Source: a virus (taxonomy: Duplodnaviria; Caudoviricetes). From it: a stretch of DNA of 64,000 bases. Below are positions 1 to 33,914 of the stretch, piece after piece (position 1 is the stretch's first letter; each line of letters opens with the position of its first letter). Under the pieces are notes generated by a model, which did no database searches, was not told where the DNA came from, and worked only from the letters and a program-made list of their open reading frames with translations. The stretch covers positions 1 through 64,000 of IMG/VR virus record IMGVR_UViG_3300037067_005096; one strand, 5' to 3'. Made by a program: the position numbers and the translations under genes.

Positions 1-9
1 GGGGAAGAC

Positions 10-510
10 TTGCTCAGTCAAACACTCCAGTACTTTCAGTGGTATAGCCGGGAAGACTGTGCAGAGTTTGTACTGCTTCAGATTCACGGGGGTTGCGATG
101 TTCGGGGCGGATATACTGTACCGAAGGTCTATCGCACATGTGACGGGCTGTATGACAACGCACGGGCAGGTATTCATTGCCCGGTGTGCTATGCTCATTG
201 GGAATCTGATGAAGGTTACTATTGGTCGCCGTGTGCTGAGCAAATTGACCTCTCATTCCTTGACGGGCATGACACACACCCGGCATTGCCGCTTGACATG
301 GCCGAACGGGTACCTTGGCCGTTGTTGAACCTTGATGAGAAGTCGTACTTGCGTGATACGAAGCAAGACGCTTATATCCGTGTAGAGCTTGACACGGAGG
401 AGTTCCCTGCTGAGAATGAGAGGGAACGCGGGAATCTGTATATCAACTCGGAGGGTCAAGGTTTGTGTCCGTATTGCCTTACCGGTACCCTCTTCGCAGG
501 GTATTGGTAG
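10..510 (+). CDS. Hypothetical phage protein, Cys-rich, probably 5'-truncated by the window edge
   Basis: Open from near the window start; LQIHGGCDVRGGYT motif and CxxC pairs; followed by a hairpin. Confidence 0.65.
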   Translation: MLSQTLQYFQWYSREDCAEFVLLQIHGGCDVRGGYTVPKVYRTCDGLYDNARAGIHCPVCYAHWESDEGYYWSPCAEQIDLSFLDGHDTHPALPLDMAERVPWPLLNLDEKSYLRDTKQDAYIRVELDTEEFPAENERERGNLYINSEGQGLCPYCLTGTLFAGYW

Positions 511-525
511 TCGTACCTCCGAGAA

Positions 526-560
526 GGCAAGCCCCGGTGTGGCAATATCCGGGGCTTGCC
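526..560 (+). terminator. Hairpin / probable terminator closing a module
   Basis: ggcaagccccgg...ccggggcttgcc 12-bp stem just after the stop codon; no U-tract. Confidence 0.6.
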
Positions 561-575
561 AAATACCTGGTAGTC

Positions 576-593
576 GTACTAGCTAGTACTACG
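576..593. repeat. Palindromic cassette-boundary element, copy 1 (GTACTAGCTAGTAC+TACGG)
   Basis: Perfect 14-bp palindrome at 576-589; recurs at 1180, 1950, 3241 (inverted) and 3942. Confidence 0.9.
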
Positions 594-607
594 GGCACGC
601 TGAAATC

Positions 608-652
608 CTGGTATTTGTACCAGTTCCATTGGCGTGGATATTGCGGTATAAT
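608..652 (+). promoter_or_regulatory. Box + sigma70-type promoter P1
   Basis: CTGGTA-TTTG-TACCAG, TTCCAT, 17 bp, TATAAT (647-652). Confidence 0.8.
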
Positions 653-682
653 CTTAGTAGAACATCTAACTCGGAGGTTAGC

Positions 683-1009
683 ATGGCTATTCAAGTTGAC
701 CGTGATGAGCTTGTCAAGAAGCTACATCCCCGCAGGTTTCCCGGAATGTCAAGCAAAATGGCCGCTATTGTGGGGTACTTCATTGGTGAAGTCTACACAA
801 ACCCGGCGATTGTGGGCTTGTATGTCACAGTAGACGGGCATTGCCTTGCACAGTCTGAAGGTGAAGTCGGGTACAACGTCTATGTTGGCGTGTTTGCTGA
901 GCTTGAGCGTAACTGGCGTGAGCTTGTGGGAATCTCGGAAGTAGGACTGTCGGAGGAAGAGGAAATCTTTTGTCTCCGTCTGTTGGAGACGAAAGTAACT
1001 CATGCCTAG
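683..1009 (+). CDS. Hypothetical early protein
   Basis: GGAGG RBS before ATG 683, downstream of P1. Confidence 0.75.
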   Translation: MAIQVDRDELVKKLHPRRFPGMSSKMAAIVGYFIGEVYTNPAIVGLYVTVDGHCLAQSEGEVGYNVYVGVFAELERNWRELVGISEVGLSEEEEIFCLRLLETKVTHA

Positions 1010-1151
1010 TGACATCAAGATTGCGAAGTTCATAGTGGCCGGTATAGGCGCAGGGATTGTCTATCCGTTGTTCGGGCTTATACCGGCATTCTGGTTTACC
1101 CTTGCCGGATGTTTCCTTTACTCCTGCTTCAGACCCTACAACGACCCATAG
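1002..1151 (+). CDS. Small membrane protein (49 aa, MPSDIKIAKFIVAGIGAGIVYPLFGLIPAFWFTLAGCFLYSCFRPYNDP)
   Basis: Hand-translated; start overlaps the upstream stop; hydrophobic; below ORF-track cutoff. Confidence 0.55.
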   Translation: MPSDIKIAKFIVAGIGAGIVYPLFGLIPAFWFTLAGCFLYSCFRPYNDP

Positions 1152-1179
1152 CCAGACCCATTTCCCCTCCAAGCAATGT

Positions 1180-1197
1180 TACTAGCTAGTACTACGG
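1180..1197. repeat. Palindromic cassette-boundary element, copy 2
   Basis: TACTAGCTAGTACTACGG. Confidence 0.9.
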
Positions 1198-1253
1198 ACA
1201 ATCATGTGCTCAAACCGACACAAAACGAGCGTTTACCCACATGATTGTAGAAA

Positions 1254-1298
1254 CAGGTATTTGTACCAGTTCCATTGGCGTGCATGTTGCGGTATAAT
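1254..1298 (+). promoter_or_regulatory. Box + sigma70-type promoter P2 (near-identical to P1)
   Basis: CAGGTA-TTTG-TACCAG, TTCCAT, 17 bp, TATAAT (1293-1298). Confidence 0.8.
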
Positions 1299-1331
1299 CT
1301 TAGTAGAACAATCAACTTCGGAGGTATCGTC

Positions 1332-1538
1332 ATGGCTTACGTGAGGCCAAACTTCAAGAACAAGAAGGCACTGAAGAACTATCTACAATCGGGCAAGCCG
1401 GTTGAAGTCTTTCAGCCCGGTCTTGGTAGTGTCCCGGAGAACGGTTCAATCGCACTCGAAGGGCCGCACTATCCCGCACCGCATAGCTGGTATGCTACTG
1501 GCACAATGAAAGACGGTTGCCTTGTCGAGGTAAAGTAA
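1332..1538 (+). CDS. Hypothetical early protein
   Basis: GGAGGTATC RBS, ATG 1332; EGPHYPAPHSWYA motif. Confidence 0.75.
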   Translation: MAYVRPNFKNKKALKNYLQSGKPVEVFQPGLGSVPENGSIALEGPHYPAPHSWYATGTMKDGCLVEVK

Positions 1539-1540
1539 CC

Positions 1541-1873
1541 ATGCACTATTCGATGGAAAACATTCGCCGGATACATCGGCAAAAGATGAATGGACACTTC
1601 TTTGACAAGGACACCATGCGGTTCTTCAACTCGCGCATACTGGAAACCGTGTACCAGGGGCCGGGCGGAGTGTTCTTCGTGACTTCTGAGCGTTTTGTCG
1701 GTTCGACATATACCGGGCCAAGACTTTACACGGTTCGCAAGTTCAACCCGGAAACTGGCGACATCGGCACACACGGCGAGTACAACAAGATAACGAAGTA
1801 TCAGGCTATCAAGGCCGCGACTGAGGCCGCAGCAGCAGTAACAGCAGCAACAGAGGCAGCAGTAACGGCTTAG
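1541..1873 (+). CDS. Hypothetical early protein with Ala-rich repeat tail
   Basis: GAGG RBS; HFFDKDTMRFFNSRI motif; AATEAAAAVTAATEAAVTA tail. Confidence 0.75.
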   Translation: MHYSMENIRRIHRQKMNGHFFDKDTMRFFNSRILETVYQGPGGVFFVTSERFVGSTYTGPRLYTVRKFNPETGDIGTHGEYNKITKYQAIKAATEAAAAVTAATEAAVTA

Positions 1874-1887
1874 AATGTGGCCGGACT

Positions 1888-1935
1888 CTCCCTGGTAATT
1901 CTCCCAGGCTAGTAGAATTACCAGGGAGCTTTTTT
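1888..1935 (+). terminator. Rho-independent terminator
   Basis: ctccctggtaattct...agaattaccagggag followed by cTTTTTT. Confidence 0.8.
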
Positions 1936-1949
1936 CATACCTGGCAATC

Positions 1950-1968
1950 GTACTAGCTAGTACCACGG
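1950..1968. repeat. Palindromic cassette-boundary element, copy 3
   Basis: GTACTAGCTAGTACCACGG. Confidence 0.9.
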
Positions 1969-1985
1969 TGGATGAATTTTCAAAA

Positions 1986-2030
1986 CCCGTACTTTTACCA
2001 GTTGGACAGGCACATAACTTGCGGTATAAT
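1986..2030 (+). promoter_or_regulatory. Box + sigma70-type promoter P3
   Basis: CCCGTA-CTTT-TACCAG, TTGGAC, 17 bp, TATAAT (2025-2030). Confidence 0.8.
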
Positions 2031-2054
2031 CCATGTAGAACGGAGGTATCGGGA

Positions 2055-2231
2055 ATGCTTTATCGAATTCGAGGTAAGGGCAAGGTGCATACAGCGTGCT
2101 ATTGGCATGCTACCCTTGCCATTGACTCTACATGGCGGGGTACTATCATTGACGGTATTCTGCTAACTGGCATGGGCAAGTGTGCAATATGCAACCGTAC
2201 CCTTGCCCGGAATCGAAACCGGAGGTATTAG
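2055..2231 (+). CDS. Small hypothetical protein, possible Zn-binding
   Basis: GGAGGTATC RBS; CxxH and CxxC. Confidence 0.6.
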   Translation: MLYRIRGKGKVHTACYWHATLAIDSTWRGTIIDGILLTGMGKCAICNRTLARNRNRRY

Positions 2232-2232
2232 C

Positions 2233-2499
2233 ATGGCACGAATCAAGCATTATCACTGTCTATCGGGCGGGCATGGCTATATGCCTGATGACAACATCAC
2301 TTGTAGAACTAAGGCGGAAGCATTAGCATGCGCAAGTGACAAGGCGCAAGAACTACGCTCGGAGGGTATCCGGGTACACGGGCGGAAGTCCGACGGTTAC
2401 TATGATGTAGCTTCAAGGGATGTTGGCAAGGCGGGCTTAGAGTATATCGAAGTCACGACTTGCACGGAAGCAACATGCCTGTTAGATTTGGAGGATTGA
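2233..2499 (+). CDS. Hypothetical early protein
   Basis: GGAGGTATT RBS, ATG 2233. Confidence 0.7.
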   Translation: MARIKHYHCLSGGHGYMPDDNITCRTKAEALACASDKAQELRSEGIRVHGRKSDGYYDVASRDVGKAGLEYIEVTTCTEATCLLDLED

Positions 2500-2500
2500 C

Positions 2501-2608
2501 ATGCGATTGTGTATATACTGTTTGGGTAACTACTTGGCCGGGCAAGCGTTCTATCAGAGAATGCAAGCCGCTAAGATTCGCAAGCGTGTTAGACTTCTCG
2601 GAGGATAG
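2501..2608 (+). CDS. Tiny basic protein (35 aa, MRLCIYCLGNYLAGQAFYQRMQAAKIRKRVRLLGG)
   Basis: Hand-translated; GGAGG RBS; fills the gap between neighbours exactly. Confidence 0.5.
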   Translation: MRLCIYCLGNYLAGQAFYQRMQAAKIRKRVRLLGG

Positions 2609-2610
2609 CC

Positions 2611-2910
2611 ATGAGTGCATTCACGGAAGCAGTAGAACGGGGATTAAGCGGGCTTGACCATGTATCAGTCGGCTATATGTCGTACGAAAAGTGTGGCGAA
2701 TGTCCAATAGGCGGAGATGATTCCGATTGCGGAGATGAGGGACACTTTTCATGGTCGGCTTGCGATTGTTGCAATTCGACTCTTGGCGGTACCCGGTACG
2801 CAGCACACGGCATTGATTCTGAGGGTAACATAGTTCACTTGGATGTATGCTCGGATTGCGTCATGTATATCGCAAACGGAGAAGAACCGGAAACTTGGGA
2901 ATCGGAATAA
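2611..2910 (+). CDS. Cys-rich acidic hypothetical protein
   Basis: GGAGG RBS; CxxC, CDCC and CxxC; FSWSACDCC...LGG.R motif. Confidence 0.75.
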   Translation: MSAFTEAVERGLSGLDHVSVGYMSYEKCGECPIGGDDSDCGDEGHFSWSACDCCNSTLGGTRYAAHGIDSEGNIVHLDVCSDCVMYIANGEEPETWESE

Positions 2911-2987
2911 ACTGGTATCCTTGCTAGGGCGTTCTCATGTGGGGTATGGAACAATCTACATGAGAACGCTTTAGGGAGGTATTCAAA

Positions 2988-3185
2988 ATGCAAAATTGGC
3001 AGGATACAGGAAGACGGGGCGATTATGGCAAGATATACCGGAATCGCCACACTGGGGAACTTGCAGAGGAACATGACAACACTTACCTGGTTGCGGTCGG
3101 AACAGGGGAAACAATCCCGGAATGCTTCAACGGCCATTCGTACCTGATAGAACAAGACCGCATAGCACGCGGTTTGCCTGTTTAG
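2988..3185 (+). CDS. Hypothetical early protein
   Basis: GGAGGTATT RBS; preceded by a hairpin at 2924-2975. Confidence 0.65.
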   Translation: MQNWQDTGRRGDYGKIYRNRHTGELAEEHDNTYLVAVGTGETIPECFNGHSYLIEQDRIARGLPV

Positions 3186-3196
3186 GGAGGAGATGA

Positions 3197-3225
3197 GGAA
3201 GCCCGGTAGAAATACCGGGTTTTCC
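3197..3225 (+). terminator. GAAA-tetraloop terminator (identical copy at 3899-3927)
   Basis: ggaagcccggta-GAAA-taccgggttttcc. Confidence 0.75.
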
Positions 3226-3235
3226 TTATGCTTTA

Positions 3236-3253
3236 CCGTGGTACTAGCTAGTA
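3236..3253 (-). repeat. Palindromic cassette-boundary element, copy 4 (inverted)
   Basis: ccgtggtactagctagta is the reverse complement of TACTAGCTAGTACCACGG; the flanking tacctggtag is also inverted. Confidence 0.85.
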
Positions 3254-3330
3254 TGGCTACCAGGTAGGGAAAACCCGGTAAAAATGCCTGGCGGGGCGTA
3301 CAGGGGCATTTCCGGGCATTCTGACAAAGA

Positions 3331-3375
3331 CTCGTACATTTACCAGTTGTGTTGGCGTGGAATTTGCGGTATAAC
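3331..3375 (+). promoter_or_regulatory. Box + sigma70-type promoter P4
   Basis: CTCGTA-CATT-TACCAG, TTGTGT, 17 bp, TATAAC. Confidence 0.7.
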
Positions 3376-3456
3376 TTATGTGAGAGGGAAATTCGGGAAG
3401 TCCAGCCCTGTCAGGCAATTATACCGGGTTTCCCTCACACTTTGGAGGTATCAGAC

Positions 3457-3666
3457 ATGACAACAGTATTGACGGGCAAGGAACAGATAACGGGCGCAAG
3501 ACTGCTTACGCTTAGGCAGGGCTTGCGTTTGGAGTGCAAGGGCATGACAAGGCATGGCCGTTCGTGCTATGCCATAATCAAGGAAGAATTCGGCTTGCAC
3601 GGAAGCAAGCAGAGTGTTTTTGAGCAATTCACGGCGATACTTCAGGATAAGGGGGTATTGGTATGA
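3457..3666 (+). CDS. Hypothetical early protein
   Basis: GGAGGTATC RBS, ATG 3457. Confidence 0.75.
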   Translation: MTTVLTGKEQITGARLLTLRQGLRLECKGMTRHGRSCYAIIKEEFGLHGSKQSVFEQFTAILQDKGVLV

Positions 3667-3884
3667 AACTGGTCATGATGACTAATGACGGGCAAGTTAT
3701 CGACTCTTACGAGGATATAGAAGAGTACGATCTAAACGACCCGGATACCCCGTTTGGGCTTATAACCTGGTTGCGTAAGACGGTCAAAAAGGGCTTGCCG
3801 ATGGAAAACAAGTCATGTATCATCGGCGGGGTATGTTTGACTTGCGGGGAACTTGATACAGATTGTGAGTGTGTGCGAGCCTGA
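3663..3884 (+). CDS. Hypothetical protein with C-terminal Cys cluster
   Basis: ATGA overlap with the upstream gene; CLTCGE..DCEC. Confidence 0.7.
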   Translation: MKLVMMTNDGQVIDSYEDIEEYDLNDPDTPFGLITWLRKTVKKGLPMENKSCIIGGVCLTCGELDTDCECVRA

Positions 3885-3898
3885 TACCTCCGCACAAG

Positions 3899-3927
3899 GG
3901 AAGCCCGGTAGAAATACCGGGTTTTCC
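3899..3927 (+). terminator. GAAA-tetraloop terminator, copy 2
   Basis: Identical to 3197-3225. Confidence 0.75.
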
Positions 3928-3941
3928 AACAAAGGACAGTC

Positions 3942-3960
3942 GTACTAGCTAGTACTACGG
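3942..3960. repeat. Palindromic cassette-boundary element, copy 5
   Basis: GTACTAGCTAGTACTACGG. Confidence 0.9.
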
Positions 3961-4039
3961 TATACTGGAAATACCTGGTGATTTTACCGGGTAGCCGTCT
4001 GAGTCCAGTTGCCTCCGCTCAGACGGCTTTTTGTGTTTT

Positions 4040-4084
4040 CTGGTATATTTACCAGTTCCCGAATCACGCAGGAAGTGGCATAAT
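4040..4084 (+). promoter_or_regulatory. Box + sigma70-type promoter P5
   Basis: CTGGTA-TATT-TACCAG, TTCCCG, 17 bp, TG-G-CATAAT. Confidence 0.75.
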
Positions 4085-4116
4085 CTACATGAGAACAAAG
4101 AACGGAGGTATCAGGA

Positions 4117-4344
4117 ATGTATAACCCGGAAGCAAGGAAACAGGATGTAGAGGTATTGGAAAACGTCCTTAGTGAACTGTCAAACTGGAAACCGGTTGTA
4201 GTGTTCGACAAAACACGAAACCAGGTTCACTATCGGGGCGAAATTCATGCTTTTGTGCTTAGTGAGATATGGAACATGGAAGAACTCCATGCCTTTGTGC
4301 AGAGTTTGGCCGGGCCGGAATACAATCTCGTAACTGTCGAATAG
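4117..4344 (+). CDS. Hypothetical early protein
   Basis: GGAGGTATC RBS. Confidence 0.7.
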   Translation: MYNPEARKQDVEVLENVLSELSNWKPVVVFDKTRNQVHYRGEIHAFVLSEIWNMEELHAFVQSLAGPEYNLVTVE

Positions 4345-4356
4345 GGGGTATCAGAC

Positions 4357-4731
4357 ATGTTAGTTATTGGCGCAAGTGAACACGACATACAACAGGCATT
4401 GAACGGCGCAAACAAGCGGTTTGCGGGAAACCTTGAATTCAAGAGGTTTGACAAGGCCGGAATCACGCGGGATAGACGGGAAAAGTTCAATGTGACACTA
4501 ACCGTCAAGTCAAGCCGCGAACCGGGCGCAAGACGGGGCTTTAGGGGGCAGAGGTTAGCGTGTGCATGTTGGCACGCTCATGGGTACTTCCTTGACGGTT
4601 TGCCCAAAGGTACCGAAGTCCGTACTACGTTGGGGGTAGTCAAGGCGGGTATCACACGTTGGCACGATTCAAACATCGGTTCAATGATGCACCCGCTCAA
4701 GTTCTCGGAAGCATGCGATTGCGCACACTAG
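4357..4731 (+). CDS. Hypothetical early protein
   Basis: GGGGGTATC RBS; ACWHAHG and CDC motifs. Confidence 0.75.
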   Translation: MLVIGASEHDIQQALNGANKRFAGNLEFKRFDKAGITRDRREKFNVTLTVKSSREPGARRGFRGQRLACACWHAHGYFLDGLPKGTEVRTTLGVVKAGITRWHDSNIGSMMHPLKFSEACDCAH

Positions 4732-4816
4732 GGGAAAACAGGTATTCCACACAGGCTCTATATAGGGCTTGTGTGGAATAACCTATATAGAAGACAACGA
4801 ACGGAGGATACAAACC

Positions 4817-4930
4817 ATGTCTACTATGAATTGGAAACTTACCCTTATCGGAATCGCCGTGCTGCTTACGCCGGTTATCTATGCTGCTATTGGCATAGTG
4901 AACACACTTCATGCGTTCTTTGGGAACTAG
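4817..4930 (+). CDS. Small single-TM membrane peptide (37 aa, MSTMNWKLTLIGIAVLLTPVIYAAIGIVNTLHAFFGN)
   Basis: Hand-translated; GGAGG RBS; below ORF-track cutoff. Confidence 0.55.
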   Translation: MSTMNWKLTLIGIAVLLTPVIYAAIGIVNTLHAFFGN

Positions 4931-4936
4931 AGAAAA

Positions 4937-4981
4937 CAGGTATATTTGACAGTTCCCGGATTGCTGATATAGTGGCATAAT
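4937..4981 (+). promoter_or_regulatory. Box + sigma70-type promoter P6
   Basis: CAGGTA-TATT-TGACAG, TTCCCG, 17 bp, TG-G-CATAAT. Confidence 0.7.
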
Positions 4982-5024
4982 GTATATAGAAGCAAAGAAC
5001 GCAGAATGAGAGGAACCTGGTAAA

Positions 5025-5462
5025 ATGACTAGCAAGTATCACAGTGAAGTTGAAGCAAGAATGCAAAGACGCTATACCCGGAATGAGCATGGACAGTTTG
5101 CAGTCAATCAAGAGTTAGCGCAAGTCAAGGCGGGTAGTGATACATTCCGCTTGATTCTTGATGACTTCGTAAATGGTGACAAGGTGCGTGCTATCAAGCT
5201 GATGAATGGCATTCGCCCGATAGATGTTATGGAGTACATCTTGGGTAGACAGTTAACTAAGGAAGAATCGACACAGTACAACGAATGCCATGAGCATGTG
5301 AGTGATAACCTGATTGATATATTCCACCTTGCACGAGAATGGCAAGCTACCGTACAGACCGGGCGCATGTATCTTCGGGGCAGGAAGTCAAGGGAAGTCA
5401 TGCTTGCACAGTATAAAGCGTTCTTGACCGGTTTAGAGAATGGCCGGAAGCGAGTCGAGTAA
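5025..5462 (+). CDS. Hypothetical early protein
   Basis: 145-aa ORF after P6; last gene of the + strand block. Confidence 0.7.
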   Translation: MTSKYHSEVEARMQRRYTRNEHGQFAVNQELAQVKAGSDTFRLILDDFVNGDKVRAIKLMNGIRPIDVMEYILGRQLTKEESTQYNECHEHVSDNLIDIFHLAREWQATVQTGRMYLRGRKSREVMLAQYKAFLTGLENGRKRVE

Positions 5463-5814
5463 AAATACCAGGTAGGGAACATTCCGGTAGAAATACCGGG
5501 ATTTTCTCGTGCCTGATTTCCAGGTATATTTACCAGGTTCGAGATTCCCCCCACCCGGCCCCTAGTACAAATACCGGGTCAGCTACCCTCACACTCTCGA
5601 CACGACGACTTTCACGTCTACAGGAGGTCACACAGAGGTTTTTCAGGTACAGAAATCCCCTGACCTAGAACATTGGAGTTGTGTAACCATTCAACTTTGT
5701 TGAGAGGATTTTTCCGGTAGAACGTGTTTTCTCTGTATCCACATCCGACCGGGCATTTTCACCAGGTTGCTGAAACCTCTCAATACAGTGAAATACTGCA
5801 CGGTATTGAGTATA

Positions 5815-6324
5815 CTACTCAACCATGATGACCTTGTGAAGCTCTGACTGCCAGAATGCGGATTCAGGACTGTGACCTTGTGCTACGATACTACGATATA
5901 AGGCTACTGCGTTTTGGAGAGCGGTGTTGGAGGCTGCCTGCTCTGTTTCCCATTGTGCCTTTGCTGCTGCAATTACGGAAGCAAACTCTTGTTGTAGAGA
6001 ACCGAGCACGTAGTTTATCAGATTAGGCTCTGACACCACGGTCGTAGCCCCTGGGTATGTAGTAGATGGGGTATATTCAATCCAATAACTAAATAGGCCG
6101 ATGGTATCAAGTTCCTCCGCCGTAAAGCGTATATTGTAGGAACCGTCGATACCTTCGGCCCAATCTGCTGCTGTCAGGGTCTTAGTGACGATACCATCAC
6201 CGGTTTTCTGGTACTTGACAACAAGCCCGGAGGCGTTGTATGCCACTCCTGTAATGCCTTCTCCTGTGTTCTTGTCTTGCAGGAGACCAGGAAGCCAGGT
6301 TTCTTGACTCTGTACCGCTATCAC
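5815..6324 (-). CDS. Hypothetical protein (N-terminal beta/Ig-like domain, C-terminal helix)
   Basis: 169-aa ORF; G.Y.I.FTA.ELDT.G pattern seen in phage adaptor-like domains. Confidence 0.6.
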   Translation of the reverse strand: MIAVQSQETWLPGLLQDKNTGEGITGVAYNASGLVVKYQKTGDGIVTKTLTAADWAEGIDGSYNIRFTAEELDTIGLFSYWIEYTPSTTYPGATTVVSEPNLINYVLGSLQQEFASVIAAAKAQWETEQAASNTALQNAVALYRSIVAQGHSPESAFWQSELHKVIMVE

Positions 6325-6366
6325 CAGTGTAATACCATCCCTACTATACTATTTCTGCCTCTGCTA

Positions 6367-7464
6367 TTATTTTACCGGTTTTCGTTGAAAACGACCTGTC
6401 CCTACACCAAGTCGCTTGTTGATTACCCTGAACTTAGTGGATGGAACATAGCTGATGGTAATGCTGGCTGCCAGACTTTTTTCGGCGTTCATGCTGTCAG
6501 CAGCACCATAGGCGACAGAAACCCCTACCGCCCCGGCTTCGGTCATACCAGATACTTCTATCGTGTAGGCCCGGTGGTCGCCACTGTCAGTGACATGTGC
6601 CTCAGTTCCACCAGTGACTACGACATCTGAATCATCGAAACCAATGACCGGCTCTGTAAATGTCGCTGAGAAGCGGACAGGTGACCTATTGGCCGGGCTG
6701 CTTTGACCCACAGCACGAGTTAAGGTCAAGACCGGCGCACACAAACGAAGGACACGAACCTCGACACCTTCTATTTCGACACGAGAACAGATACCGGTGA
6801 GTCCCGAAAGATAGTCACCTATCTGATTCGTGAATGGAATAACTTTGCCGGAGCCGACTTCGAGGTCAACGGCCATGTCTACGCCGCTGCCATCATCAAT
6901 GTAGAAGTAGCTGTCACCAATCTCTGTGACGTTGCCCCAGGTTCGTATCAGGAGGCCCACGTTATTCAGTCCATAGCCATCCCAGAATCCTGATTGACCA
7001 GTTGGAGGTGGGCCAGCATCATACCAGAAATCGCCTCCGCCAACAGACTTATTGGTCATGCCAAGTGGTCTTAGAAATGTATTGTGAGACGACACGGTAT
7101 ATGACGCATTGTCGATGAAGCGTTCGCCTTCGGTGGTGTTCATTGTGCCCGTGGTGACTGTGATTGTATCACCGGGATACGGACATGCTGCGGATTCGAC
7201 CTTGATACCACAGGCCCGGCTCGACTCTGAGATGTAGAAATGGCCCATCTTAGGGAATGTCCTGGTAACCACTTTGTCATCCAGGGTGTCTGTCAAGACC
7301 GTATTGTCCGGCAGAGTCTTGGCCCAGGCTATGGTATGCACGCCAGGCGGAGAAGACGGCAGCGGTTCGCCACTTTCATCTCCACCTGGAGGCATGATTT
7401 GGGCTACGGCTGCTGTACAGAACAAGAGGAACGCGAAGATAAACAGGTAACTACGTGTTTTCAA
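6367..7464 (-). CDS. Secreted protein: Armatimonadota-type repeat/OB-like domain plus C-terminal bacterial Ig-like domain
   Basis: Signal peptide (MKTRSYLFIFAFLLFCTAAVA); FYISESSRACGIKV, PLGMTNKSVGG, GLNNVGLLIRTWGNVT..FYIDDGSG; F.ATFTEPV.GFD..DV Ig-like motif. Confidence 0.7.
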   Translation of the reverse strand: MKTRSYLFIFAFLLFCTAAVAQIMPPGGDESGEPLPSSPPGVHTIAWAKTLPDNTVLTDTLDDKVVTRTFPKMGHFYISESSRACGIKVESAACPYPGDTITVTTGTMNTTEGERFIDNASYTVSSHNTFLRPLGMTNKSVGGGDFWYDAGPPPTGQSGFWDGYGLNNVGLLIRTWGNVTEIGDSYFYIDDGSGVDMAVDLEVGSGKVIPFTNQIGDYLSGLTGICSRVEIEGVEVRVLRLCAPVLTLTRAVGQSSPANRSPVRFSATFTEPVIGFDDSDVVVTGGTEAHVTDSGDHRAYTIEVSGMTEAGAVGVSVAYGAADSMNAEKSLAASITISYVPSTKFRVINKRLGVGTGRFQRKPVK

Positions 7465-7481
7465 CAGATACGACTCCTTCC

Positions 7482-8378
7482 TTAGTCTATGATGGTGATT
7501 GACCCTACGGCAATTTGAGGGTCTATGTTCGGGCCGCAGTCGGCCTCAAGTGTGATGGTGTCCTTGACACGGTGAACTTTGGCAATCAGCCTGACAATGT
7601 GGCTCGACCGGCTCTTCGGAACGAGTTCCGTGTATACTTTGACTGTTTTGTTGGTCTTGCCCTCGTCATGAATGACTATGAACGACCCGGAGGTGTCTTT
7701 TCCGGCACTGACGACTCGTCTATCGCGTAATCTGACCCATTTGCCCTCTTCCGGGCTGGAACCGAGTAAATCGGCCACAGAATTGTATGTTGTGAGGTCT
7801 TTGATACGCACCAGAGAGTCATCAACCGTGGATTTCGTTGTTGTCAAGTTGACTTCCGGGGCCTTTTCGACTTTAGTGAGTTGGGATTTATATGCCCATG
7901 CTACTGGAGCCGTGATACCTTTGATGCAAGGCCCACCTCTGACCAGTAAGTTGCCGTCTTTGTCCTGATAACCCAAGATAGTTGGACACTCAAGAACACG
8001 TCTGCCATCTGACAGTGTTGCCAGCGTGCCGATGACATCGACCAATTGACCGGGGCGCATAGTAGAAGTAGCTGGGATGTCCACAATCAGAGTCTCGCGG
8101 TTGGTGTACCAATCATGGATAACCAAGTATTTCTGAGGTTCCTTGTAGATTGCCCCGACATGCACAGCATCGAGAGTGACTAATGCGCCGTCTTTCTGTG
8201 TCAAAGCGTGCTTGATTGTGCCTGCTCGGTCGGCCCACGGTGGGTCAGATGGCTCAGCTTTCTTCGCTGCTTCGACTGCTGCCACATGTTTGGCGTGAGA
8301 AGCTGGCAGCTTCGTCACCGCACCCCAGGCAGCCTGCACTACAAGAATGAGAAGTGTGATGGTGATGAGTCTTTTCAT
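7482..8378 (-). CDS. Secreted protein with two OB-like repeats
   Basis: Signal peptide [19 protein letters not shown]; ATGA overlap with the sigma gene stop. Confidence 0.65.
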
Positions 8379-9235
8379 ACGACCTCCATTGTGAGTTCTG
8401 CAATCCTTTTCCATCGCCAAGAATTGCGTATTTTGGTGAGAGCTTTGTATTCAATTTGGCGGGCACGCTCTCGTGTGACCCCCAAAACACAACCTGTTTC
8501 TTCCAGAGTATGACTGGCTCTACCAGCAAGCCCGAAGCGGAGATGAATTACGTCCTTTTCTCGCGGTGAGAGCATCGTCAGCAGTTCTTCGGTTATCTGC
8601 TCTCGGACGATAAGACGATTCAGAATTTCGTCTGCTGTGGGTTGGCTCTCGTCCTCGATGAGGTCGGCCAGTGTGCCTTCCTCACATTCGTCACCCACGG
8701 GCGTGGTGTCAATGGAAATCGGGTCAAGGATGTTTCTGAGCAGAAGGTCGGCAATCTTTGGGTCGAACCCGGACGCTTCAATAAGTTCTTCTTTGGTGGG
8801 TTCCCGGCCAAGCTCTTGAACCATGTCGTTCATGGTCTTGTTGAGTTGGAAGAGCTTTTCAGTGATGTATGCCGGGAGACGAATGGTGCGGCCAGAGTCA
8901 CTGAGACCTCGTGTAATGGCCTGGCGTATCCAGAAAGTGGCATAGGTAGAGAACTTGTAGCCCTTACGGTAGTCATACTTCCCCGCCGCTTTGATGAGGC
9001 CAATGTTACCGTCCTGAATGAGGTCTGAGAAATCGAGACCACGACCGGTGTAACGTGAGGCAATATCCACGACAAGGCGCAGATTGTGCTCAATGAGCTT
9101 GGTCTTTGCAGCTTCGTCGTTGTATTCCCAGATTCTACGGCCTAGTTCGAGTTCTTCTTCAGAATTGAGCAGAGGCAGTTTGCCTGCTTTAGCCATCCAC
9201 GTGTGGACGACATCATCCGTATTATCTTTCATCAT
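8375..9235 (-). CDS. RNA polymerase sigma-70 factor, RpoD-like (regions 1.2-4)
   Basis: [55 protein letters not shown]. Confidence 0.95.
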
Positions 9236-9243
9236 GGCTCCTT

Positions 9244-9627
9244 CTACTTTACCCAATGTACTCCTACACTATTTGGGTCATCGAGCAGGAAGAGACACGA
9301 CACATCTTTTCTCTGTGCCAACTGACGTACATCATCAAAGAGCCTCATATCAGGTTTGAGGTCATCTCGTTCAGTTGCCTCCAGGAACAGGTCGGCCAAT
9401 TCTTGCTTACTGAAGCATACTATGCCCCAGGTATCATACTCGACAACACCATCATCTCGTGTCAGTTTGAGACGAAGTTGATAGTATCTGTCCTGAGCAT
9501 CGCTCAGAACGTATAATAAGTCTGGAAAAGTGTCGCAGACTATGGATAGGCGTGCTGTGCCTTCTGGAGTCTGCTCTGCTTTGAACATCTTGTCCAGCAG
9601 ATTCCTGATTTCTTGGGCTTTGTCCAT
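9244..9627 (-). CDS. Hypothetical protein
   Basis: Fits operon packing; RBS GAGG. Confidence 0.65.
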
Positions 9628-30956: not shown

Positions 30957-31940
30957 CTAGGTTTTTCGACTGTGTTCCACCCATCGTAGCGTCTCTTCTA
31001 CGATTCCTCCAATTGGGATTCTGGATAGACACTCAAAGGGTTTGTGCCGGAACCATTGCTGGGAATCACAGGGATACTTGTACCAGCACGGCGCACAATC
31101 GAGGAGTTTTCTACTGTCTGTTGCGCTACCGATGTAGTTTCCCATTCGCATGCGTTGGTCGGTTGGGCCGAATAGTCCAACAACAGGAGTTCCGACAGTC
31201 CCGGACATGTGTAATATCCCGGAGTCAACAGATATAACGACAGCCATCTGTTCCAAGAGCGGCATAACTTCTCGCACACGCTTGTTAATAAGATAGTCAA
31301 CTCCGGGGATGGTGCAGGTTGGGTCAATAGTGACCGGATAGAGACCTTCATTCAATAGAGCTTTACAGATGGCCTCAAGTTTTCCGATTCCGAGTGCTCG
31401 TTTCTTATCACAGGCAGACAAACCAACTCCGATGACGGTTTGACCTTCCCAGTGTTCTGCAGCATACGCCTGAGCGGATGCCCGCTCTGCATCGTTGATT
31501 CGATAAACTGGTGCATAGCTACTGGGGATAACCCCTGCGTGTTCACACCAGATGACATATCGTGGTTTTTCAATCCCGCCATTATCCATTGCACCCCATT
31601 CGTAGTCTACACAAGCAGTATTCAGGTCGATGGTGATGTCAGCCATCTTCCAGATGAGTTCATCTTCGATATTAGGCGTCTGTGCGCTGAAGTATTTACC
31701 CCACACATCCTTCGTCCGTTGGGTGGTGCAGTCGTATGGCTCTATCGGATGAATCTCGTCAATGAAGGGATTGCGTTCTGCAATGTCCATTAACGCTCCA
31801 CCCAGATAGATTTCTGCCGTTGCCAGTTTGATAGTGTGATGAGGATACTTCTCTCGAAGACCTCTGTATACACACGACATCATCAGACAATCGCCTATAC
31901 CACCGAGTTGTCGGACTGCAAGGATGTATGGTTTACGCAT
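30957..31940 (-). CDS. Glycosyltransferase family 9 (heptosyltransferase-like)
   Basis: GGIGDCLM, ISVDSGILHMSGTVGTPVVGLFGPT, C-terminal CAPC...C...C. Confidence 0.9.
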   Translation of the reverse strand: MRKPYILAVRQLGGIGDCLMMSCVYRGLREKYPHHTIKLATAEIYLGGALMDIAERNPFIDEIHPIEPYDCTTQRTKDVWGKYFSAQTPNIEDELIWKMADITIDLNTACVDYEWGAMDNGGIEKPRYVIWCEHAGVIPSSYAPVYRINDAERASAQAYAAEHWEGQTVIGVGLSACDKKRALGIGKLEAICKALLNEGLYPVTIDPTCTIPGVDYLINKRVREVMPLLEQMAVVISVDSGILHMSGTVGTPVVGLFGPTDQRMRMGNYIGSATDSRKLLDCAPCWYKYPCDSQQWFRHKPFECLSRIPIGGIVEETLRWVEHSRKT

Positions 31941-32226: not shown

Positions 32227-32958
32227 TTATGCCTCCTGGATAGTACTGGCGCACGCGATGACAACAGGCATCGGGTCGCTTTTGGATTTTGGTTTGTTCC
32301 GGGTCAGATACACAGTATCGGTTTCTTTACCAGCTTCTCGGATTTCGAGTTTCATCTTAGCTGCTACAGTCACATACTTCTGACGAATCAAAACAGTTCG
32401 AGTTGGGCTGGTTAGGCGTACCAAGTCACCTGCACTGGTATCAACACCATAACGCTCTCCGATGGGTTGAGTCATGAACTCGGTCAACTCGAAAGTTGGA
32501 AGTTCATCTAACTTATCATACCATACAGGACTTCCACCTATTTTGGTGCTGGCTATCTTTTGGGCATAGTTCACCAGGTCAACGGATTCCCAGATGATAT
32601 ACCCATCACTGACTAACGAATGTAGACCATCCCAACCCTCAAACCAACCCCAGTATATTGGCTGCTGAAAAGACAGAGCAAAGTGATTTTTCACTGCTGT
32701 GATTTCATCGTGCAGGTCACAGAACTCTGCTGGCAGACCCATCAGATTGATGATAGGTGCGGTTGGTTGAGTTGGTGGATGTAAGCCATACCGTAAGGAC
32801 ACCTCTCTCCATGTCTCTCCCGTGTTGATACGGCTGACAGTCTTCTTCGAGACTCCAAACTCATCCGCAATCAACCGATGTGGAACTTTTTGTTTGAGGC
32901 GTTCCAGGATGGCTATTACTTGTGGTTCTGTCAAGATGGCCGTAGGACGAACTGTCAT
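32227..32958 (-). CDS. HTH-domain protein
   Basis: LTEPQV..I...IADEFGVSKKTVSRINTGETW; ATGA overlap with GT9. Confidence 0.65.
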   Translation of the reverse strand: MTVRPTAILTEPQVIAILERLKQKVPHRLIADEFGVSKKTVSRINTGETWREVSLRYGLHPPTQPTAPIINLMGLPAEFCDLHDEITAVKNHFALSFQQPIYWGWFEGWDGLHSLVSDGYIIWESVDLVNYAQKIASTKIGGSPVWYDKLDELPTFELTEFMTQPIGERYGVDTSAGDLVRLTSPTRTVLIRQKYVTVAAKMKLEIREAGKETDTVYLTRNKPKSKSDPMPVVIACASTIQEA

Positions 32959-33914
32959 ACTAAAGCCTCCTCCAGCCCGGCTATAATCATTGGAAAAGTA
33001 ATACGCCGGAGGCAAGACCACTGCTGAAATCTCCACTGGCACTGGCAGGACTTCAGTTCCTCCGGCGTTTGGCAATATCCGAGACTTTTCTTAGGCACTA
33101 CAATGCAATTATACCCTTTTACCCGCAATTCTGGGGGCATTATCCCCCACAAAGCGACCTGGGGAGTGTCCACTGCCTGTGCCAAGTGAAGCAAACCAGT
33201 ATCGGGCGTGAGAATCAACTTACAATGCTTCAACAGAGCCGCTACGAAGTCTAGCTGCTTGCCAATACAAGACACAGCATATTTGTTCGATAGTGGTTTG
33301 ATGAAGTCAATGCTCATTGGGAGATACCCTTTGGTATAGAGCCAGTCTGCAACCCGACCAGACATCCCGTCGTAATCCCAATCTCGTGCCCACATTCCGG
33401 CTCTCAGAACGATACCAACGATAGGCTTGTTCTCAGGATTCTTTTCTGCCAACCATGCTCGAACCTCTGCATCCTTCTCATCAGATACCGTGTACTTCGG
33501 TAACAGGTTGACGTTGGGGTCATACAGTTTGTGGTGTTCTAGCCAGAATCGTGCGATTCCATAGGGTGTCATCCCGTTATAGTCACGCTCAAACTGCATG
33601 AAATCTGCATTGCAGTCTAGCACTAAGTCAGCCGTCTGGACTGTGTAGGGTAGTGGGTCAACTGCAGCCCCGAATAAGAGGGGGTCGATTTGCTGATTCA
33701 AAGCGGTAGTCCATTCACGAGAGTCAATACACTCGATTCGGTCTACTCCGGGAATGCCTTGAAATATGAGAGGCAACGCCCCGCCTAAGTAACGGTCGTC
33801 TGTAATAACCGTTACTTGGTTATCCAGATACTTCCGTTTTAGTTGGCTAACCAACGGTGACAGAAGCAGGCAGTCTCCTATGCTTGGACGTTGACGAATT
33901 ATGACGGTTTTCAT
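32955..33914 (-). CDS. Glycosyltransferase family 9 (heptosyltransferase-like)
   Basis: SIGDCLL, LTPDTGLLHLAQAVDTPQVALWG, C-terminal Cys cluster. Confidence 0.88.
   Translation of the reverse strand: MKTVIIRQRPSIGDCLLLSPLVSQLKRKYLDNQVTVITDDRYLGGALPLIFQGIPGVDRIECIDSREWTTALNQQIDPLLFGAAVDPLPYTVQTADLVLDCNADFMQFERDYNGMTPYGIARFWLEHHKLYDPNVNLLPKYTVSDEKDAEVRAWLAEKNPENKPIVGIVLRAGMWARDWDYDGMSGRVADWLYTKGYLPMSIDFIKPLSNKYAVSCIGKQLDFVAALLKHCKLILTPDTGLLHLAQAVDTPQVALWGIMPPELRVKGYNCIVVPKKSLGYCQTPEELKSCQCQWRFQQWSCLRRITFPMIIAGLEEALV

Follow-up and report, generated by a model that had tools for sequence, protein, structure and literature searches.

The small-gene block at the beginning of an uncultivated tailed phage genome (IMG/VR record IMGVR_UViG_3300037067_005096, Caudoviricetes; its positions 1 to 64,000 are the window analysed here) is punctuated by a palindrome with the 12-bp core TACTAGCTAGTA, which lies between the end of one gene unit and the promoter of the next. 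Judging from sequence patterns, we lean towards this palindrome being the upstream site of a dimeric regulator for the promoter class that drives the hypervariable block, with activation as the likeliest mode of action. A preliminary description of this DNA had proposed that the element might be a dedicated recombination site or a protein-binding site; in its conservation and its helical phasing with the next promoter, it appears to behave like the latter.

Palindrome, promoters and helical phasing

The whole record is 112,083 bp long, of which the window is the first 64 kb. A terminal repeat of 127 bp indicates a circularly permuted assembly, and the palindromes near the two contig ends therefore form one array split by the ends of the contig. 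The 18-mer TACTAGCTAGTACYACGG occurs on the plus strand at 577, 1180, 1951 and 3943 and on the minus strand at 3236-3253, and was absent from 100 shuffles. With at most one mismatch, the 14-mer GTACTAGCTAGTAC is found at 576, 1179, 1950, 3241 and 3942 and at no other site in the 64-kb window, which recovers the five-copy element of the preliminary description. A motif scan of the full contig showed the array to be larger than claimed: the core CTAGCTAG has nine copies in the genome, at 579, 1182, 1953, 3244 and 3945 and at 108,657, 108,684, 109,963 and 111,455. Rather than being scattered in coding regions, all nine are intergenic and lie in a single block of about 9 kb that runs from 108.6 kb through the end and start of the contig to 3.9 kb. 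Because CTAG is depleted three-fold genome-wide (140 seen versus 434 expected; likewise in the relatives G001 and G002), these sites stand out even more. The window copies are as follows:

576-589: palindrome copy 1, GTACTAGCTAGTAC, 16 nt past the hairpin at 526-560; centre 49 bp upstream of the promoter GG
1179-1192: palindrome copy 2, TTACTAGCTAGTAC, 28 nt past the stop codon of the open reading frame (ORF) at 1002-1151; centre 92 bp upstream of the promoter GG
1950-1963: palindrome copy 3, 15 nt past the T-run of the terminator at 1888-1934; 53 bp upstream of the promoter GG
3241-3254: palindrome copy 4, GTACTAGCTAGTAT, with inverted flanks, 16 nt past the terminator at 3197-3228; 107 bp upstream of the promoter GG
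3942-3955: palindrome copy 5, 15 nt past the terminator at 3899-3930; a second terminator at 3993-4032 precedes the promoter at 4040

All five are intergenic and upstream of the next promoter, and four follow a hairpin, in agreement with the earlier placement of the element between gene blocks and usually behind a hairpin; the copy at 1180 follows a stop codon without one. The copy at 3241 is inverted yet occupies the same place, which suggests a site that, like enhancers and operators, functions regardless of orientation.

Scanning IMG/VR with the 14-mer returned 81 stretches, among which the true relatives are two contigs only, G001 (106,380 bp) and G002 (92,568 bp; IMGVR_UViG_3300037067_010411); the same database searched with the 18-mer gave no match. 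These two and this phage are the three near-complete genomes (G000-G002), and core genes of this phage share about 65-70% DNA identity with those of G001 and G002. L243 (from a 100,730-bp contig) and L245 (from a 26,299-bp contig) were reached via a sigma factor gene at 8375-9256. The five palindrome-bearing phages are a family of roughly 100-kb uncultivated phages, in which the four relatives are distant. They contribute 46 sites (9 in this phage, 11 in G001, 13 in G002, 7 in the part of L243 that was fetched and 6 in L245), and each position of the 12-bp core, usually extended to GTACTAGCTAGTAC, is kept in 44-46 of them (96-100%). The flanks differ by phage, reading AAGTAC...GTACTT in G001, TGGTAC...GTACCA in G002 and CGTAC...GTACYACGG in this phage. 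In all five, the palindrome is restricted to one single-strand block of small genes, and in most units, as read in the contexts of three genomes, it lies 11-20 nt past a T-run or hairpin. The earlier view that the element is confined to one array of small-gene units, distinct from promoter and terminator and better conserved than either, thus holds across the family. Literature searches for the 12-mer and the 10-mer gave nothing relevant.

The unit order is shared by the five phages and reads stop codon, hairpin terminator, 11-20 nt, palindrome, variable spacer, short A-tract, dyad box CTGGTA-N4-TACCAG, about 8 nt, a 16-nt element, ribosome-binding site and one to five small genes. Such units number 7-13, head to tail. 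The promoters of the block in the window are as follows:

608-652, plus strand: promoter; dyad box CTGGTATTTGTACCAG at 608-623, -24/-12-like element TGGCGTGGATATTGCG at 630-645, TATAAT at 647-652
1254-1298, plus strand: promoter; box at 1254-1269, TGGCGTGCATGTTGCG at 1276-1291, TATAAT at 1293-1298
1986-2030, plus strand: promoter; box-like sequence at 1986-2001, AGGCACATAACTTGCG at 2008-2023, TATAAT at 2025-2030; passes the sigma-70 scan (TGGACA-16-TATAAT)
3331-3375, plus strand: promoter; box at 3331-3346, TGGCGTGGAATTTGCG at 3353-3368, TATAAC at 3370-3375
4040-4084, plus strand: promoter of a different make; box at 4040-4055, CATAAT at 4079-4084, no GG-N10-GC element
4937-4981, plus strand: last promoter of the block; TTGACA-16-TATAGT, or CATAAT at 4976-4981; no palindrome and no GG-N10-GC element

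The 16-nt element, with its GG and GC doublets ten bases apart, matches the sigma-54 consensus TGGCACG-N4-TTGCW, scored here over 12 positions; in Clostridiales the corresponding consensus reads TTGGCATNNNNNTTGCT (PMC6615313). Perfect 12/12 matches number seven in 18 kb of L243, where the block strand carries six and the seventh is on the opposite strand outside the block, and L245 has four 12/12 matches and several of 11/12. Seven matches of 11/12 were found in G002, and those of G001 score 10-12/12. In this phage the matches reach 9-10/12 with both doublets kept, at 630, 1276, 2008 and 3353 in the window and at genome positions 110,028, 110,736 and 111,530. The ribosome-binding site of L243 and L245 units follows TTGCA by 11-13 nt, with no usable -10 hexamer between, and a sigma-70 reading is therefore hard to sustain there. 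The preliminary description had assigned a boxed sigma-70 promoter to every block, which is correct in part: a generic sigma-70 scan accepts two of the six window block promoters, but the others have a poor -35 and carry the GG-N10-GC element instead. Outside the block, the box promoters that were read have a conventional -35 (TAGACA, TTGCCA) and lack the palindrome; by eye, none has a properly placed -24 GG, though the one at 95,460 has a -12-like TTGTGCGG.

For the phasing analysis, distance was taken from the palindrome centre to the second G of the next promoter's GG doublet, giving 26 pairs within 76 bp. These distances form four groups, 39-42, 48-53, 59-63 and 67-73 bp, and the Rayleigh R peaks at 0.68 for a period of 10.35 bp, a value reached by none of 3000 uniformly drawn distance sets. 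The spacer sequences are unalike, and each distance group mixes sites of several phages. If the GG is placed at -24, the palindromes are centred near -65, -75, -85 and -95; a few lie farther away, at -116 to -150, where additional hairpins intervene. The element is thus a palindromic upstream site that occurs in either orientation, with centres about 64-150 bp ahead of the presumed start and with phasing at short range. Spacing by helical turns would be expected where a protein on the palindrome has to face one on the promoter, a rule that has no place in a recombination site or a simple roadblock. It is the kind of spacing that marks an upstream activator or enhancer site, or an operator.

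Small genes and turnover in the block

The small-gene block is on the plus strand; it begins near 108,540, crosses the contig junction and ends at 5,462, with minus-strand genes at both borders. Its parts in the window, other than palindromes and promoters, are as follows:

1-5462, plus strand: window part of the block; minus-strand genes from 5815
1-510 (starts at genome position 111,585), 683-1009, 1002-1151, 1332-1538, 1541-1873 (DUF7447), 2055-2231, 2233-2499 and 2501-2608, plus strand: block ORFs, first half
2611-2910, 2988-3185, 3457-3666, 3663-3884, 4117-4344, 4357-4731, 4817-4930 and 5025-5462, plus strand: block ORFs, second half
526-560, plus strand: GC-rich hairpin GGCAAGCCCCGG / CCGGGGCTTGCC without a T-run, closing the unit that spans the contig start
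1888-1934, plus strand: intrinsic-terminator-like hairpin with 20-nt arms and T6
3197-3228, plus strand: terminator CCCGGTA-GAAA-TACCGGG with T-run; an identical copy at 3899-3930
5481-5506, plus strand: terminator at the end of the plus-strand block

As described earlier, GGAGG-type ribosome-binding sites precede the genes of the units; all window block ORFs have one, and DUF7447 (1541-1873) is the only Pfam match among these ORFs. Pfam searches on 20 small early proteins returned DUF7447 and a RuvB-like ATPase and nothing else. Unit terminators are often CCNGGTA-N4-TACCNGG followed by a T-run. This dyad forms the terminator stem when its loop is GAAA (window 3202-3225, 3904-3927 and 5484-5506) and the promoter-proximal box when the loop is in the opposite orientation, TTTN (608, 1254 and 4040); some L243 promoters have ACTTTTGCAAAAGT in place of the dyad box. 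A few unit-final proteins (1541-1873 and some in relatives) have Ala/Thr/Val-rich tails (e.g. ...AAAAVTAATEAAVTA) or long GCA-repeat stretches before the terminator. Ala-rich C-terminal tails are not general across units.

The block is hypervariable: only 1 of its 21 genes is common to G001 and 3 of 21 to G002, and the eight genes that this phage shares with L245 keep their order. Close relatives of the block were found in the metagenome fragments L118, L121 and L124, which are 80-88% identical and reveal where genes are exchanged. Past the palindrome at 1950, one promoter type and two genes (2055-2499) follow in this phage; in L124 the upstream half of the promoter is a different one and there is no additional gene, and in L121 the promoter is of the type found at 111,453 of this phage (81% identity) and precedes one unrelated gene. 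Homology among the three resumes at the 35-aa gene at 2501. At this locus homology to L121 and L124 breaks off, on the left, at the palindrome's right edge, and the breakpoint on the right coincides with the start of a gene. Within a unit, L124 also carries additional genes ahead of 3457 and behind 3666, and in L118 the RuvB-like gene is swapped for a 43%-identical allele between flanks of 82-86% identity. Thus, module exchange as well as insertions and deletions are seen in these fragments, and the mapped breakpoints fall mostly at ribosome-binding sites or gene starts inside units, with one alone at a palindrome edge. Promoters 610 and 1256 are 92% identical to each other.

Searches of the three near-complete genomes for tyrosine integrases (PF00589), serine resolvases (PF00239) and Y1 HUH enzymes (PF01797) gave no match at E ≤ 0.1, and control genomes matched. 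Units are not promoterless cassettes bounded by the site, each having a promoter of its own. The missing recombinases, the per-unit promoters, the breakpoints within units, the gene order kept with L245 and the helical phasing leave the integron-like array of the preliminary description unsupported. Turnover of the block is probably homologous recombination between repeated regulatory modules and at gene boundaries, without a site-specific enzyme acting on the palindrome, and the cassette-like look of the array would follow from this process. If so, phage "cassette arrays" can arise without integron-like machinery.

A close known parallel in architecture is the promoter-early stem-loop (PeSL) of T4-type phages, whose repeated terminator-promoter motifs are points of homologous exchange (PMC2839356, PMC4122927). 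In both cases the small orphan genes of a hypervariable region are flanked by composite modules of stem-loop terminator and promoter, relatives show insertions, deletions and replacements, and modules are exchanged without a dedicated recombinase, in the present array probably by homologous recombination. However, a PeSL combines a stem-loop and an AT-rich stretch with a sigma-70 early promoter, and it lacks both the separate invariant palindrome and the -24/-12 element found here. Mini-circles have been shown for PeSLs, whereas the present array is known from assembled sequence.

Regulatory reading, alternatives and candidate binders

In the proposed mechanism, a dimeric DNA-binding regulator would sit on the palindrome and contact the promoter-bound complex across 40-70 bp, and this contact would allow spacers to differ by whole helical turns only. 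The palindrome would then act as an enhancer or upstream activating sequence (UAS) for an ATP-driven activator of sigma-54 RNA polymerase, or as a class-I-type activator site, and the accessory block would be placed under one switch. We infer protein binding, activation and the reading of block promoters by sigma-54 polymerase from the arrangement of the sites; of the sub-hypotheses, activation of sigma-54-type promoters leads, with looping repression as its main rival. A bolder version, which we consider unlikely, is that host sigma-54 RNA polymerase expresses the accessory block of the whole phage family, probably in Bacillota, from 7-13 enhancer-promoter units and with a new kind of phage protein as activator.

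Several observations weigh against activation of sigma-54-type promoters. The units are partly paralogous, and the 26 distances are therefore not fully independent. Most bacterial UAS sites lie 100-250 bp upstream (PMC6615313), whereas most sites here are nearer, with centres at -65 to -95. The -24 boxes of this phage are degenerate, and TATAAT or TATACT directly follows the element in this phage, G001 and G002, for which a sigma-70 reading (a poor -35 with an activator) is possible. Sigma-54-like promoters with no palindrome within 200 bp occur in L243 (four) and L245 (six). No binding protein for the palindrome was found in the three near-complete genomes, which also have no RpoN gene and no match over the cut-off to the Sigma54_activat ATPase domain (PF00158); an activator would accordingly have to be host-derived or of unknown kind. 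Lastly, a host regulon with the same enhancer is not in evidence: in 185,579 bacterial and archaeal species genomes, the 12-mer placed 30-60 bp upstream of TGGCAY-N5-TTGC gave one unrelated hit, against about four expected by chance on our own estimate, and the enhancer sequence was thus found in enhancer-promoter configuration in none of the sequenced bacterial species scanned. The motif is also absent from Clostridiales UAS tables. The lack of such a host regulon mildly favours a phage-encoded binder.

Known systems share parts of this arrangement. In sigma-54 systems with a UAS and an enhancer-binding protein (the NifA palindrome TGT-N10-ACA, tandem NtrC sites and Clostridiales enhancer-binding protein regulons; PMC6615313), as here, a palindrome lies tens to about 150 bp upstream of TGGCAC-N5-TTGC, in either orientation, at variable distance, with helix-face dependence at short range and with one motif serving many promoters. 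They differ from the present case in that G000-G002 encode neither an enhancer-binding ATPase nor sigma-54, that there is usually one palindrome per promoter, that a second dyad box lies between the palindrome and the -24 element, that three of the five phages have a TATAAT behind the -12 element, and that 7-13 units stand head to tail. Among phages, use of host sigma-54 besides sigma-70 has been reported for Pseudomonas phage YuA (Ceyssens et al. 2008, cited in 10.1101/2023.10.13.562163); the latter source links one promoter region alone (P015) to sigma-54, and we found no account of a unit array or a phased palindrome. YuA is unrelated to the phage studied here, and its host belongs to an unrelated phylum.

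Class I activators of the CRP type are centred near -61.5, -71.5, -82.5 and -92.5. As in the present array, their dyad sites occupy positions one turn apart upstream of promoters with a weak -35, and an A-tract lies between the site and the core promoter. The sequence, however, is unrelated, the present positions deviate by about 3 bp (sigma-54 reading) or about 6 bp (sigma-70 reading), and no CRP-family protein has been identified in this case. The stoperators of mycobacteriophage L5 and the C1 operators of phage P1 are likewise many copies of one short protein-binding site through which one regulator exerts global control. Those sites are asymmetric, genome-wide and located within promoters or transcribed regions, whereas the palindrome is symmetric, confined to one block and placed in the untranscribed gap that separates terminator and promoter.

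Repression is the alternative closest to the regulatory reading, and we give it a low probability. A repressor or silencer dimer on the palindrome would loop to a protein on the dyad box, or spread, and keep the block off at one infection stage, in the way that KorA/KorB act through global operators on IncP plasmids and C1 through scattered operators on phage P1. Looping repression would account for the phasing, the conservation and the block restriction equally well; the conservation of a helix-turn-helix (HTH) protein (32227-33075) in the three near-complete genomes and the absence of the site in this configuration from bacterial genomes, which favours a phage-encoded binder, also fit. On the other hand, the site lies clear of the promoter, 40-110 bp upstream, promoters with a poor -35 look activator-dependent, no ParB/KorB-type domain was found, and the HTH protein is encoded among tail genes and has an uninterpretable model (pLDDT 47). 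It is quite improbable that the palindrome is instead an insulator or roadblock, at which a protein bound behind the terminator stalls read-through polymerase and shields the next promoter, as Reb1/TTF-I sites do behind ribosomal DNA units. This would explain why the palindrome keeps a tighter distance to the terminator (11-20 nt) than to the promoter box (17-100 nt), why promoters inside units, with no terminator ahead, tend to be without a palindrome, and why the copy at 3942 is flanked by terminators on both sides. A roadblock, however, could do its work without helical phasing relative to the next promoter, no unit to be terminated precedes the double sites at the block start, and the copy at 1179 has no terminator ahead.

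A dedicated site-specific recombination site of mobile cassettes, comparable to attC in integrons, is very improbable. The gene content between sites is hypervariable, one breakpoint falls exactly at the right edge of the palindrome (1950-1968 in L121 and L124), and one copy is inverted along with its flanks, which speaks for such a site. Set against these points are the lack of an integrase, resolvase or HUH enzyme in three genomes, the other breakpoints at ribosome-binding sites or gene starts within units (the absent or replaced genes of 2055-2499 and the extra genes of L124), the eight genes in shared order with L245, the promoter of each unit and a phasing without a role in recombination. 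We find it hardly credible that the palindrome has no binder and has been conserved only as one component of a terminator-promoter module propagated, in the manner of PeSLs, by duplication and gene conversion. Regulatory modules are indeed exchanged within the array, as the L121 stretch at 1951, which is of the 111,453 type (81% identity), and the 92% identity of promoters 610 and 1256 illustrate, and PeSLs are known to mediate shuffling (PMC2839356, PMC4122927). However, concerted evolution within genomes cannot hold 12 bases invariant across five phages while both flanks differ from phage to phage and also within one phage, and it leaves the 10.35-bp spacing rule unexplained. Further readings were rejected: the stems are too short for a cruciform or Holliday junction, a role at the RNA level does not fit a site between terminator and promoter, and a pac or partition site is contradicted by the spread of sites over 7-11 kb and by the absence of ParB (no match to its N-terminal domain, PF02195, at E ≤ 1 in G000-G002).

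Under the whole-family version of the sigma-54 reading, candidate activators are the HTH protein, a 403-aa orphan protein and the RuvB-like ATPase. The HTH protein is a core protein on the minus strand (window 32227-33075) among tail genes, with an N-terminal helix-turn-helix (HTH_Tnp_4, E = 2.9e-7) and an uncharacterised C-terminal domain of 180 aa. It is 63% identical in G001 and 48% in G002, and its presumed recognition helix is nearly invariant in the three phages. With a pLDDT of 47, its model could not be used for structure searches, and the Atlas returned no hit. Matches of the HTH protein in G000-G002 to the Trp_repressor family are weak and below the cut-off (E = 0.004-0.016), Pfam assigning HTH_Tnp_4; the half-site of TrpR-type operators is GTACTAG. 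Pfam and PHROGs searches of small core proteins found no clear regulator besides this one HTH protein. The 403-aa orphan (genome 106,587-107,798, minus strand; L093:6588-7799) is transcribed divergently from the block start in this phage, G001 and G002 and has about 12 metagenomic homologues. With its confident AlphaFold model (pLDDT 83), Foldseek found nothing at E ≤ 0.001 and VIA-align nothing at Z ≥ 5. The RuvB-like AAA+ ATPase (genome 108,948-109,910, plus strand; L093:8949-9911) has RuvB_N (E = 2e-24), AAA and RuvB_C winged-helix domains; it is the sole AAA+ protein of the block and is encoded by the block's first gene, directly behind the double palindrome, as also in G002. As an activator it was set aside, being absent from G001 and lacking a GAFTGA loop.

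If the palindrome is such a regulatory site, the fastest-evolving genes of these phages, which are likely the host-takeover and counter-defence set, are under one switch separate from the rest of the genome, and this switch is made of parts that bacteria normally use for signal-dependent, enhancer-driven transcription. The array would then be a rare and cleanly repeated natural case of helical phasing rules, would extend the handful of phage sigma-54 reports to an entire gene block, and would point to a not-yet-known activator or repressor.

Phage, host and relatives

Pfam analysis of this phage identified a T4-type capsid and portal, a family A DNA polymerase fused to uracil-DNA glycosylase, a ribonucleotide reductase and an SNF2 helicase. 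Among isolate phages, window positions 1-8000 had no megablast match and the portal gave identities of only 22-27% by tblastn, indicating that the phage has no cultured relative. The gene at 8375-9256 (minus strand) encodes a truncated RpoD-like sigma factor with regions 1.2, 2, 3 and 4, which is 50-54% identical to RpoD of Clostridia and other Bacillota; metagenomic relatives of phage type are 55-64% identical to it. This Bacillota-like RpoD and the strong GGAGG ribosome-binding sites suggest a Bacillota host. L243 and L245 have the sigma factor, whereas G001 and G002 lack it, and it was therefore rejected as the explanation of the shared promoter class.

Other probes added little to the family. 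The 14-mer match L053 proved to be an unrelated duplicated gene end, and the cytidylyltransferase gene adjoining the block was too widespread, with 80 loci and no new arrays. A search with alignment A2 (the gene at 30957-31940 in the tail-gene region and its G001 and G002 counterparts) yielded just two more short fragments. G002 is rated 94% complete, yet its contig ends are the counterparts of window positions 38.6 kb and 63 kb, and the genes of this phage at 39-63 kb (capsid, portal and DNA polymerase) have no tblastn match in it. Beside the sigma factor gene, L243 (6515-7033 and 11524-12048) and L245 (8127-8549) have one or two Endonuclease_7 genes, similar to T4 endonuclease VII, together with a trypsin-like protease.

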